From the UHGV virus genome UHGV-0144335: 15,922 bases of DNA; one strand, written 5' to 3'. How positions within the stretch are numbered: position 1 is the first letter of the stretch; each line of letters begins with the position of its first letter. This document shows, one piece after another, positions 3,001-6,000 of the stretch. This stretch comes from a virus. The position numbers are program-made.

Positions 3001-6000
3001 ATGGAGGCCAAAACACGGACTGATCTGGTGGTGATGTCAGACGAACCAGATGATGAAACTGAAAAACTGGCTGAAGCTATTAATGCTGAATTTGCCGATG
3101 CATGCCGCCTTGGCAATATGAATAAAGCCCGCTCTGATGCCTATGCGGAACAAATCAAGGCGGGGCTCAGCTGGGTGGAGGTCAGACGGAACAGCGATCC
3201 GTTCGGGCCTGAGTTTAAGGTGTCTACTGTCAGCCGGAAAGAAGTGTTCTGGGACTGGCTCAGCCGGGAAGCTGATTTAAGTGACTGCCGCTGGCTGATG
3301 CGCCGCCGCTGGATGGATACCGATGAGGCAAAAGCCACATTCCCGGGAATGGCTCAGGTTATCGATTATGCCATTGATGACTGGCGTGGTTTTGTCGATA
3401 CCACGGTTACTGAAGGCCAGCCCAGTCCGTTGATGAGTGCATGGGAAGAGTATCAGTCATGGGATCGTAAGGAGAACGAATGGCTTCAGCGTGAACGCCG
3501 TCGTGTGCTGCTTCAGGTGGTTTATTACCGTACATTCGAGCGTCTTCCGGTGATTGAACTCAGTAATGGACGGGTGGTGGCCTTTGATAAAAATAATCTG
3601 ATGCATGCGGTGGCTGTGGCATCCGGGCGGGTGCAGGTGAGAGTCGGGCGGGTAAGTCGTATTCGTGAAGCCTGGTTTGTGGGACCGCACTTTATTGTGG
3701 ATCGCCCCTGCAGTGCGCCGCAGGGGATGTTCCCGCTGGTTCCCTTCTGGGGATACCGGAAGGATAAAACCGGGGAGCCTTACGGGCTGATTTCCCGGGC
3801 CATTCCGGCACAGGATGAGGTGAATTTTCGTCGTATAAAACTGACGTGGTTGCTTCAGGCCAAACGCGTGATTATGGACGAGGATGCCACCCAGTTGTCA
3901 GACAACGAGCTGATGGAGCAGATCGAGCGTCCGGATGGCATTATTAAACTGAATCCGGCCCGAAAAAATCAGAAAAGCGTTGCTGATGTTTTCCGGGTTG
4001 AACAGGATTTTCAGGTTGCCAGCCAGCAGTTTCAGGTCATGCAGGAGTCGGAAAAACTTATCCAGGACACGATGGGGGTTTATTCCGCATTTCTCGGGCA
4101 GGATTCAAATGCATCGTCCGGCGTGGCGATCAGCAACCTGGTGGAGCAGGGAGCCACAACCCTTGCCGAAATCAACGATAACTACCAGTTTGCCTGCCAG
4201 CAGGTGGGAAGGCTGTTGCTCGCTTATCTTCTCGATGGCCTGAAAAAGCGGCGTAATCATGCGGTGGTGATTAATCGTGATGATCGCCAGCGTCGCCAGA
4301 CCATTGTTCTCAATGCTGAAGGTGATAATGGTGAACTGACCAATGATATTTCAAGGTTAAATACACATATTGCGCTGGCTCCTGTTCAGCAGACACCGGC
4401 GTTTAAGGCACAGCTTGCACAGCGAATGTCAGAGGTTATTCAGGGGCTGCCACCTCAGGTGCAGGCCGTCGTGCTCGACCTGTGGGTTAACCTTCTGGAT
4501 GTGCCGCAGAAACAGGAATTTGTCGAACGTATTCGTGCGGCGCTGGGGACACCAAAATCACCGGATGAGATGACCCCGGAAGAGCAGCAGGCCGCTCAGC
4601 AGCAACAGGCCCAGGAGCAGCAACAACAGGAACTGCAGATGCGCGAAATGGCAGGCCGGGTGGCTAAACTGGAAGCAGAAGCTGCCAGGGCACAGGCAGC
4701 TGCGCAACGGGATAATGCTGGCGCACAACGGGATGTCGCCGCGGCACAGGGACAGCGTTATGTGGATGCGCTCAACCAGGCGCATACGGCAGAAATCATT
4801 ACCGGCATACAGAATATGGAACAGGAGCAGGAAGCTCTTCAGCAACAGATGCTACATACACTACAACAGCGGATGCATGAATTGCCGCTATGAATATCCT
4901 GAACTTAACGGAACCCCGTCATCGTACGGGGTTTTTTGTTTCCGGAGATAAGCGTCCCGGGAGCGGTGCGCTTATTCGCGGGGGCAGCGATAAGCCTTAT
5001 TTACTCAACCATTCGGATCTGTCCGATAAACAGACCATGCGGAGTTATTTATGGATTTTGAATTTACGGGTGAAGAAACCCCGGAACAACTGGAAAAAAT
5101 GCTGGAAGGACTTGGGGATGTGGATATTGACAGTCACGAACAGGACGGCGTGACAGAGGCCGCCACAGAAAATCATGCGGATGAGGCAGCACAGACACAG
5201 ACGGGCGATAACACTGCGGCACCGACGCCGGATGCCAGTGCTGAGCAGACGCAGGACGTGAAGGAGCCGGAGGCGAAGGGTGTGCTCACCCGCGATGGTA
5301 AACACGTCATTCCCTATGAAGTCCTTGAGGCTGAACGTTCCGGTAAGCAGCGGGCCGAACAGGAAGCCGCACTTCTTCGGGGACAGATAGCCGAAGAAAA
5401 ACGCCTGGTTGAACTGCTGACGTCTCAGATCCACCAGGCCGGTATGAAACCCGCACCGTTACCGGAAAACGAAAAAATCTCTGATGAGAAGATTGCCCGT
5501 ATCAGGGAGATGTATCCGGAAATTGGTGACGCGGTGGCTTCGCTTATCCGTAAAAATAACTATCTCCAGTCCCGTGTTCAGCAATCAGCACAGCAGGCAG
5601 AAGGTCATGGTGGTGAGGATTTATCACCGGTTCTTGATGCAATGAATGACGTGCCGGTGCTGAAAACGTGGCAGAACTCCGATCCGGATCGCTTCTCGGT
5701 TGCCGTATCCATCGATGGGAAGCTCCAGAATGACCCCGTATGGAAAGACAAACCGCTCACTGAACGTTTCGCCGAAGTGGCCCGCCGTACGCAGCTCGCT
5801 TTCGGTGAAGCCAGTGAGCCGCCTTCTGATGACAAGGCAGACAACACGGATATCCGGAAAACGGCGGAAGAAAAAGTGAAAGCCGCTGAACGGGAGATGG
5901 CAGTGCCTGCTTCCCCGTCAGAGCTTGGCAACACGGCTTCCGTCGGAACCGGTGATAATTTTGAACGGTTACTTGGTGCTTCCCATACCGAAATTGAAGC

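Follow-up and report, generated by a model that had tools for sequence, protein, structure and literature searches.

We found that a 15,922-nucleotide (nt) stretch of the virus genome UHGV-0144335 (the window) carries a conserved, folded RNA element in the intergenic region between its portal gene and a downstream head-assembly gene. The element, at positions 4936-5050 of the + strand, is a probable cis-acting structured mRNA leader without an Rfam family, and it stands directly in front of the gene at 5051-6058, which encodes a protein of 335 amino acids (aa). That the conserved RNA structure is real is, in our view, practically certain. The element is likely to act in cis on the head-assembly gene, the leader is very probably a control element for head-protein production, and a post-transcriptional control site is a reasonable reading. 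The first-pass annotation of this DNA had proposed a translational control site in front of a scaffold gene, with the scaffolding protein of phage P22 as the precedent. A conserved sense-strand RNA structure tied to one gene bears this proposal out in part, whereas the scaffold label and the idea of a P22 site did not hold.

Folded alone, the leader was unexceptional (z = -1.84; 11 of 200 shuffles folded equally well), and the case for structure therefore rests on its relatives. The minimum-free-energy fold (-28.9 kcal/mol) contains a long interrupted hairpin, P1/P2, at 4936-4987 of the + strand. Its lower stem P1 (4936-4944 with 4979-4987) is rich in U.G pairs and has the U-tract of the preceding terminator as its 5' arm, and P2 (4947-4955 with 4968-4976) contains the inverted repeat ATAAGCG/CGCTTAT. 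Above P2 lies an apical stem of 3 base pairs (bp; 4957-4959/4964-4966) that closes the loop GGAG (4960-4963). In the window the hairpin thus has 9 + 9 + 3 bp, approximately 21 bp, interrupted by one 2x2 and one 1x1 mismatch. The same long hairpin was predicted in seven of seven representatives of different clades, with a P1/P2 of about 19-24 bp that carries a conserved internal mismatch.

A small hairpin, P3, was found at 4982-4997 of the + strand, with the stem GGGC/GCCU (4982-4985 with 4994-4997) and an 8-nt loop (4986-4993) that reads AGCGAUAA in the window and AGCGAUAC in most relatives. The loop is near-invariant, AGCGAUA(A/C), and P3 lies inside the most conserved motif of the region, GGGCAGCGATA(A/C)GCC, the columns of which are invariant or near-invariant. 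Four bases belong both to the 5' arm of P3 and to the 3' arm of lower P1, so that the two structures are mutually exclusive; the calculated energies were -29.9 kcal/mol for the form with full P1 and -27.8 kcal/mol for the form with P3. Another hairpin, GCUUAU 4970-4975 with AUAAGC 4990-4995, was discarded as specific to this allele, being lost where the loop reads GAUACG. In one Yersinia clade (L009, L101 and L102) the P3 loop CGCAUCAG replaces AGCGAUAC with equal length and the stem kept. These leaders also have a rewritten P4' (see below) and segment before the Shine-Dalgarno (SD) sequence, GUGAGACAGGAG instead of AGACAUGCAGGAG, and the changes look coordinated.

Further downstream, at 5013-5036 of the + strand, the Enterobacterales leaders have a module of two mutually exclusive small hairpins that is missing from those of Aeromonas, Vibrio and Photobacterium. 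P4 pairs UCGGA 5013-5017 with UCCGA 5022-5026; it is invariant, 98% paired and the choice of RNAalifold. P4' pairs UCUGU 5018-5022 with ACAGA 5030-5034, plus GG/CC at 5015-5016/5035-5036, around the loop CCGAUAA. A GATC (Dam) site at 5016-5019 in this module is kept in nearly all enteric leaders and was lost in one sequence (L133, GAGC). The remaining part of the region (5037-5053, + strand) consists of the pre-SD segment CAUGC(R)GGAG with the SD GGAG at 5041-5044 and the start ATG at 5051-5053, and the pre-SD, SD and AUG are all unpaired in the consensus structure obtained from the alignment with RNAalifold. In the window 47 nt separate the P3 loop from the SD, and in Vibrio and Photobacterium P3 ends about 7 nt before it.

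Covariation was scored on a MAFFT alignment made without fitting to a structure. In P1 and P2 taken together 90% of the cells were paired, in comparison to 35-51% when the partners were slid by one to three columns, and changes on both sides were seen in 11 of the 21 pairs. The number of cells with both-side changes was 111 as compared to 32 +/- 6 in shuffles (0 of 500); these shuffle counts are not probabilities and the statistics overstate independence, because many compensatory cells descend from few clade-level events. An alignment fitted to the model gave similar covariation values. G.U or U.G cells in P1 and P2 outnumbered A.C or C.A cells by 245 to 25, and therefore the structure is one of + strand RNA and not a palindrome in duplex DNA or a minus-strand RNA. 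P3 was 92% paired with one compensatory pair, its stems being GGC/GCC, GAC/GUC and G.U variants. The middle pair changes from G-C in the enterics to A-U in Vibrionaceae via G.U intermediates, and when the stem GCU/AGC is included with GGC/GCC and GAC/GUC, P3 combines an invariant loop with a covarying stem. RNAalifold predicted P3 and P4 independently, and P4' had one covarying pair (A-U 18, G-C 4, U-A 1). A comparison of homologous portal-scaffold intergenic regions had been suggested in the first-pass annotation as a check, and across them the structure is conserved with compensating changes.

Homologues of the 335-aa protein were gathered independently of the RNA, and the gap between the portal gene and the homologue was at least 153 nt in every locus. 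The leader architecture precedes nearly every homologue, down to about 33% protein identity, and the element abuts the start of the homologue in Citrobacter, Salmonella, Yersinia, Brenneria, Pectobacterium, Symbiopectobacterium, Aeromonas, Oceanisphaera, Vibrio and Photobacterium. Some loci (L005, L011, L096, L013, L016 and others) have 0.4-2.2 kb of unrelated genes inserted behind the portal gene, and in these the element remains next to the downstream gene. The element is tied to this gene and not to the portal gene.

A covariance model (R1) was built on the MAFFT alignment of 60 distinct sequences. In 78 of 86 sources, which span Enterobacterales, Aeromonas, Oceanisphaera, Vibrio and Photobacterium, it gave a single + strand match of 47-86 bits immediately before the homologue, and the minus strand scored only 11-34 bits. 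On the window the model gave one match (75.4 bits), and no further copies of the motif were found within it. The negative sources were seven of the most distant metagenomic homologues and the stretch L296. Two of these seven (L204 and L205) keep a P3-like hairpin with the loop UAGCGAUAC on the different stem GCU/AGC. Five of the most distant metagenomic loci (L200, L202, L203, L206 and L208) are without the element. Two terminators and a short leader (about 45 nt) are present there, and the loop UAGCCG of their small hairpin UCGU/ACGA may be a degenerate P3. L296 was considered as a second genomic context and rejected as a chance match within a 162-aa coding sequence.

Viral contigs were also scanned by sequence only with the pattern TTANNCGCNNRGRCAGCGATA, which matched at least 120 stretches. 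Among the matches listed, 109 of 120 lie upstream of a homologue of the gene, and the element is therefore tied to one gene family. The other 11 of the 120 listed show no downstream homologue. In ten of these 11 the flanks are unlike those of the element and the match seems due to chance, with two of the ten on stretches (229 and 823 nt) too short to reveal a downstream homologue. The eleventh is L296, the match within a coding sequence.

Between Escherichia coli alleles the noncoding leader is the best-conserved stretch of its neighbourhood. The allele in the window differs from that of phage 933W at 3 of 141 positions in terminator plus leader (4910-5050; 97.9% identical), as compared to 87-95% identity in the flanking coding sequence and only 56% in the 16 nt between the portal stop codon and the terminator. 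One of the differences (A4948G) turns an A-U pair into G.U and another (C4956T) falls in a mismatch. The leader was present at an identity of at least 95% in 421 of 5,426 complete E. coli genomes and was never annotated as RNA there. A nearly identical copy of the 933W-allele junction was found in a 1716-nt contig labelled 'Xanthomonas pisi DSM 18956' (L003, NZ_JPLE01000158.1). Its leader is identical to that of L001, and contamination of the Xanthomonas assembly is the most likely explanation.

The junction between the portal gene and the head-assembly gene is also a hot spot for insertions, and every insert then has its own terminator. The inserts lie at 741-2874 in L005, 727-2866 in L011, 1038-2882 in L096, 1658-2624 in L013 and 2052-2912 in L016. 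The cargo includes a 529-aa open reading frame (ORF) in two Brenneria loci, a 302-aa ORF with a reverse 215-aa ORF, a 275-aa ORF and a reverse 210-aa ORF.

The leader is preceded by an intrinsic (rho-independent) terminator that was found with a terminator scan at 4910-4941 of the + strand, 17 nt after the portal stop codon. Its sequence is that of an intrinsic terminator, with a stem of ten pairs (4910-4919/4926-4935), five of them G-C, a 6-nt loop (4920-4925) and the T-run TTTTTTGTTT at 4932-4941, and with a hairpin energy of -13.7 kcal/mol the strong terminator reported earlier ahead of the leader was confirmed. In a strict scan, 53 of 64 loci had a terminator-like hairpin with a T-run immediately before the element, and the remaining 11 have a hairpin and T-run by eye, with imperfect or weak stems. 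The stem sequences of the terminators are unrelated across clades, and therefore the pairing of terminator and element has been maintained and not merely inherited.

The late operon of 933W-type phages is read from PR' by a Q-modified, terminator-resistant polymerase (PMC7547250). Since this polymerase ignores terminators, the leader would be transcribed in lytic growth. No sigma-70-like promoter was found in 4500-5500, and a sigma-54-like GG-N10-GC reading of TGGGCAGCGATACGC was rejected, as Vibrio and Photobacterium have ACAGACAGCGATACGT. In viral contigs of the Photobacterium type (L103-L121) a conserved promoter-like sequence, TCTTGACT...TATACT, was seen about 40 nt before the terminator of the element; lying about 40-90 nt upstream of the element, it may drive a very short transcript. 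Rfam 15 gave no match reaching the gathering threshold in the whole window, and at E <= 10 only terminator look-alikes were obtained, both on 4816-4935: RsmY (27.3 bits; gathering score 57) and isrJ (22 bits; gathering score 37). The RsmY match was not considered real, its score coming from the terminator hairpin and the GGA-rich 3' end of the portal gene.

The first-pass annotation had put emphasis on GATAAG/CTTATT repeats in the 110-nt leader. The inverted repeat that it described was found, with ATAAGCG 4948-4954 pairing with CGCTTAT 4969-4975 as the core of a 12-nt imperfect repeat (83% complementary), and the further GATAAG-like copies and the ribosome-binding site of the gene in the scaffold slot (GGAG 5041-5044, ATG 5051) are likewise present. 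The leader holds five such hexamers in total, GATAAG at 4947 and 4989, CTTATT at 4971 and 4996, and GATAAA at 5025. Allowing one mismatch on both strands, these five matches compare to 1.2 +/- 1.0 in dinucleotide shuffles (P ~0.0025), and as many were reached in only 0.4% of the 110-nt stretches of the window, with the caveat that a single hairpin contributes two of the five copies as its arms. However, the repeats are not the conserved feature of the region. The majority 933W allele has GGTAAG as copy 1, and most relatives have GATACG as copy 2 and CGACAA in place of the copy at 5025. An array of protein-binding hexamers was therefore rejected, as the hexamers are enriched in the window but not kept as repeats in homologues, and judged from these alignments the repeats are incidental.

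By its sequence matches the window is a head-morphogenesis module of a short-tailed, Shiga toxin (Stx)-converting phage of the 933W/Sp5 type (Sepvirinae). The stretch 4600-5400 has 99.4% identity to Shigella phage POCJ13 and about 91.5% identity to 933W, VT2-Sakai and some 185 further Stx phage records. Upstream of the leader lie the genes for the small terminase (247-1062), the large terminase (1043-2749) and a P22-type portal of 714 aa (2749-4893, + strand; Pfam PF16510 P22_portal, E = 2.2e-131; phrog_156), which ends with the stop codon TGA at 4891-4893 (+ strand). The head-assembly gene (5051-6058, + strand) belongs to phrog_479, a family of unknown function. The major capsid protein gene (6081-7295, + strand; PF13252, E = 6.6e-88; phrog_334) begins 22 nt after the end of the head-assembly gene, and the two are probably on one message. 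An 87-aa ORF overlaps the leader in the window (4890-5153), and in phage phi346 (L002, 1637-1762) PHANOTATE called a 41-aa coding sequence overlapping the leader; both look spurious.

The corresponding genes were studied by systematic deletions in phage Sp5 (VT2-Sakai), which carries the same module (PMC5155283). The portal gene of the window is the orthologue of Sp5 ORF60 (ECs1221), the portal, and the head-assembly gene that of ORF61 (ECs1222), which is essential for heads and the deletion of which leaves no head-like particles (PMC5155283). An antibody to the ORF61 product does not label virions and its role was left unassigned, while ORF62 is the capsid protein and ORF65, the deletion of which gives spiral structures of capsid protein, is the proposed scaffold (PMC5155283). 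In light of these data the earlier name "scaffold" for the gene at 5051-6058 remains a positional guess, as its Sp5 orthologue has no assigned role and another gene is the proposed scaffold.

The 335-aa protein gave no Pfam match, no PDB sequence match and no Foldseek match, and its family profile showed no similarity to P22 gp8 (hhalign probability 0.2%). The AlphaFold2 model is all-helical and elongated (pLDDT 65, pTM 0.26), with a 40-residue helix, a disordered acidic region at residues 23-72 and a C-terminal helix pair. This predicted fold and the position of the gene are compatible with a scaffold. Identity between the window and Yersinia was 47% for this protein and 71-73% for portal and capsid; it diverges approximately twice as fast as these two, and its N-terminal 15 residues and the region around 197-253 stay conserved. 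As a check of co-evolution, the protein of the Yersinia clade with the variant P3 loop was examined and showed no disproportionate divergence.

For the function of the element we propose the following mechanism. The stretch 4936-5050 would be the 5' leader of the mRNA for 5051-6058, and probably for the capsid gene too, and would act in cis as a folded RNA. When polymerase reads through the portal terminator, the leader would fold into the P1/P2 hairpin of about 21 bp beside P3, which would show its 8-nt loop, and the SD and AUG would remain open. Together with the base of the long hairpin, P3 would serve as the operator of a trans-acting factor (most likely a protein) that tunes ribosome loading on the head-assembly gene by binding there. 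Head-assembly protein could in this way be made at a level of its own, separate from that of the terminase and portal genes upstream, which are of low abundance. Hairpins in which the stem varies around a fixed loop usually mark a site recognised by a protein or by another RNA, as in the MS2 and PP7 coat operators, the T4 gp43 operator and lambda boxB. By this analogy a factor-binding translational operator is the explanation that we tentatively favour, because the stem of P3 varies while its 8-nt loop is near-invariant across bacterial orders.

The candidate factors include the product of the gene itself, and a conserved host protein or another protein of the head module would be at least as likely. 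Autoregulation by the head-assembly gene product specifically is unlikely. We consider equally improbable a loop in which translation is stopped by a head protein, be it the unassembled product of 5051-6058 itself or a different one, that attaches to the P3 loop and to the base of P1/P2. In such an assembly-sensing feedback the alternative between lower P1 and P3 would be a conformational switch, and the element would be the first defined RNA target for scaffold autoregulation of the P22 kind. Pairing of the P3 or P4' loop with 16S rRNA was no better than with shuffled sequences, and the search for a complementary partner of the P3 loop elsewhere in the window stayed at chance level. Sites for CsrA (the GGA in UCGGAUC and the SD) were considered and rejected, as they are without conservation outside the enteric clade.

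Several observations weigh against such an operator. In the window the P3 loop, at 47 nt from the SD, is beyond the range of simple steric occlusion, and P3 neither overlaps nor abuts the ribosome-binding site. The head-assembly product is an acidic, helical protein in which no RNA-binding domain is recognisable. It is also an unlikely reader of the loop because it evolves fast while the loop stays unchanged all the way from E. coli to Photobacterium, unless a few conserved segments of the product could read it. The variant loop CGCAUCAG of L009, L101 and L102 occurs in the same host genus as the common loop, lower P1 and P3 cannot coexist, and many of the compensatory cells trace to few clade-level events.

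The main rival to a factor-binding operator is an RNA processing and stability module, with the late transcript cut in the intergenic region between the portal and head-assembly genes; we regard this as possible but rather doubtful. RNase III would cut P1/P2, or RNase E the U-rich linker, after which the terminase-portal message would have its 3' end guarded by the terminator hairpin, the new 5' end of the head-protein message would be protected by P1/P2 or P3, and the abundant head proteins would be made from a separately stabilised mRNA. Every clade indeed has two stable hairpins around a U-rich linker, and the upstream one is kept as a structure though its sequence is unrelated between clades. 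P1/P2, intercistronic and with its conserved mismatch, has the size of an RNase III substrate, and the shape of the helix is conserved far more than its sequence. In addition, the alternative between lower P1 and P3 could report removal of the 5' arm. The Q-dependent late RNA of lambda has RNase III sites according to Daniels et al. 1988, as cited in PMC7547250, and the yield of Stx phages falls when RNases E and G are both depleted (PMC8443680). However, cutting and protection leave the near-invariant 8-nt loop of P3 and the conserved CGC / GGGCAGCGAUA unexplained, because the sequence needs of RNase III and RNase E are weak. The upstream hairpin moreover always has a full T-run and so looks like a true terminator and not a mere 3' stabiliser. 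A processing module accounts well for the terminator partner and poorly for the invariant loop, and it is not exclusive of an operator.

The constant pairing with an intrinsic terminator could also suggest that the leader RNA works on transcription, by modifying polymerase or recruiting Nus factors in the manner of HK022 put or a nut site, and so modulates read-through. Several clades have a boxA-like CGCUCUUA / GYUCUUU in the 5' strand of apical P2. But the element cannot act on its terminator because it lies downstream of it, and the boxA-like sequence is missing in the window and in the Salmonella/Citrobacter clade (GCGUCCCGG, GCCCGCUGG) and buried in a stem where present. A nut or boxA-boxB site was rejected, as a single-stranded CGCUCUUA-like boxA upstream of terminators was not found, and 933W-type phages already have Q antitermination from PR' (PMC7547250); we consider control at this level very unlikely. 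About as improbable is a small RNA (sRNA), either an sRNA from the portal 3' untranslated region with the terminator as its 3' end or a leader released to act in trans. The hairpin with its U-tail is typical of an Hfq-type 3' end, and terminated transcripts are indeed a source of regulatory sRNAs in Stx phages (StxS; PMC7547250). The weak RsmY and isrJ matches point the same way, but they are far under the gathering scores and cover the terminator only. The sequence upstream of the terminator is coding and not conserved across clades, the conserved part lies downstream of it and is fixed to the start of one gene, and the stretch 4500-5500 yielded no promoter-like site.

Inverted repeats and repeated GATAAG hexamers are typically seen in DNA that proteins bind. 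The junction is also a hot spot for insertions, and the element could be bound as an inverted repeat by a dimeric DNA-binding protein or be a pac/cos-type or recombination site. The excess of G.U over A.C makes no sense for symmetry in duplex DNA, however, and the stems change by compensation while the P3 loop is fixed. As the hexamer repeats are not conserved and the model scores are strongly strand-specific, a site at the DNA level seems highly improbable. The view that there is nothing beyond the terminator, only an incidental hairpin or a small protein-coding ORF such as the 87-aa and 41-aa frames above, has next to no probability. It could draw on the modest single-sequence fold (z only -1.8) and on the small ORFs that annotators called here. 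But the leader is conserved across bacterial orders and better than the neighbouring genes, the apical stem has indels with lengths not divisible by three, and the 933W allele has no ATG at 4890. The covariation, the distribution of the model matches and the conservation between alleles refute both forms of it.

The element lies in the late operon of short-tailed Shiga-toxin phages and related prophages of several genera. It marks the jump from proteins made in few copies (terminase, portal) to those made in hundreds (head-assembly and capsid proteins). To our knowledge, it is poorly understood how lambdoid and P22-like late operons reach this jump with only one transcript. The element is small and well defined, has covariation behind it and is experimentally tractable, and it could expose how P22-like modules set head-protein output. 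If the factor is the head protein itself, the leader would supply the missing RNA target for assembly-coupled autoregulation.

A search of the literature, including the identifiers ECs1221-1223, retrieved no description of this leader, and the Sp5 genetics paper was the only relevant one on these genes; the leader may sit among the more than 10,000 unnamed candidates of a phage RNA screen (Fremin and Bhatt 2023, PMC10690425). It resembles the candidates of that screen and the phage motifs of Rfam in being supported by covariation and in its fixed position upstream of a gene.

In comparison to P22, the order of small terminase, large terminase, P22-type portal, head-assembly gene and P22-superfamily coat is the same, and the head-assembly gene sits in the slot of the scaffold with a predicted fold that is elongated and helical. 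Autoregulation of the P22 scaffold has been known genetically since the 1970s-80s. It acts on translation and the N-terminus of the protein has been implicated (bioRxiv 10.1101/2022.12.13.520362). Unlike in the present phages, which have a structured leader, only 13 nt separate P22 genes 1 and 8, the covariance model gave no match on P22, and gp8 is dissimilar to the 335-aa protein. The P22 precedent is therefore not a homologous site and is a functional analogy at most.

With the R sites of T7 and the late transcript of lambda, where RNase III acts, the leader shares a mismatched hairpin of about 20 bp between genes, upstream of structural genes. In T7 these are hairpins between cistrons that RNase III processes, and the structural genes behind them are highly expressed. 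The present element is unrelated to such sites in sequence, and it differs by the conserved loop motif beside the hairpin and the true terminator in front. The stable hairpin near the presumed 5' end of the message and the U-rich single-stranded stretch between two hairpins resemble the ompA leader and papBA. The ompA and papBA stabilisers require no conserved loop sequence, unlike the element described here, which has one. As a putative operator, finally, the leader is similar to the operators of MS2 and PP7 coat, T4 gp43 and T4 RegA in presenting a fixed-loop hairpin with a covarying stem in a gene leader. Those operators overlap the SD or AUG, whereas in the window there are 47 nt between the P3 loop and the SD, and in Vibrio and Photobacterium P3 ends about 7 nt short of it.

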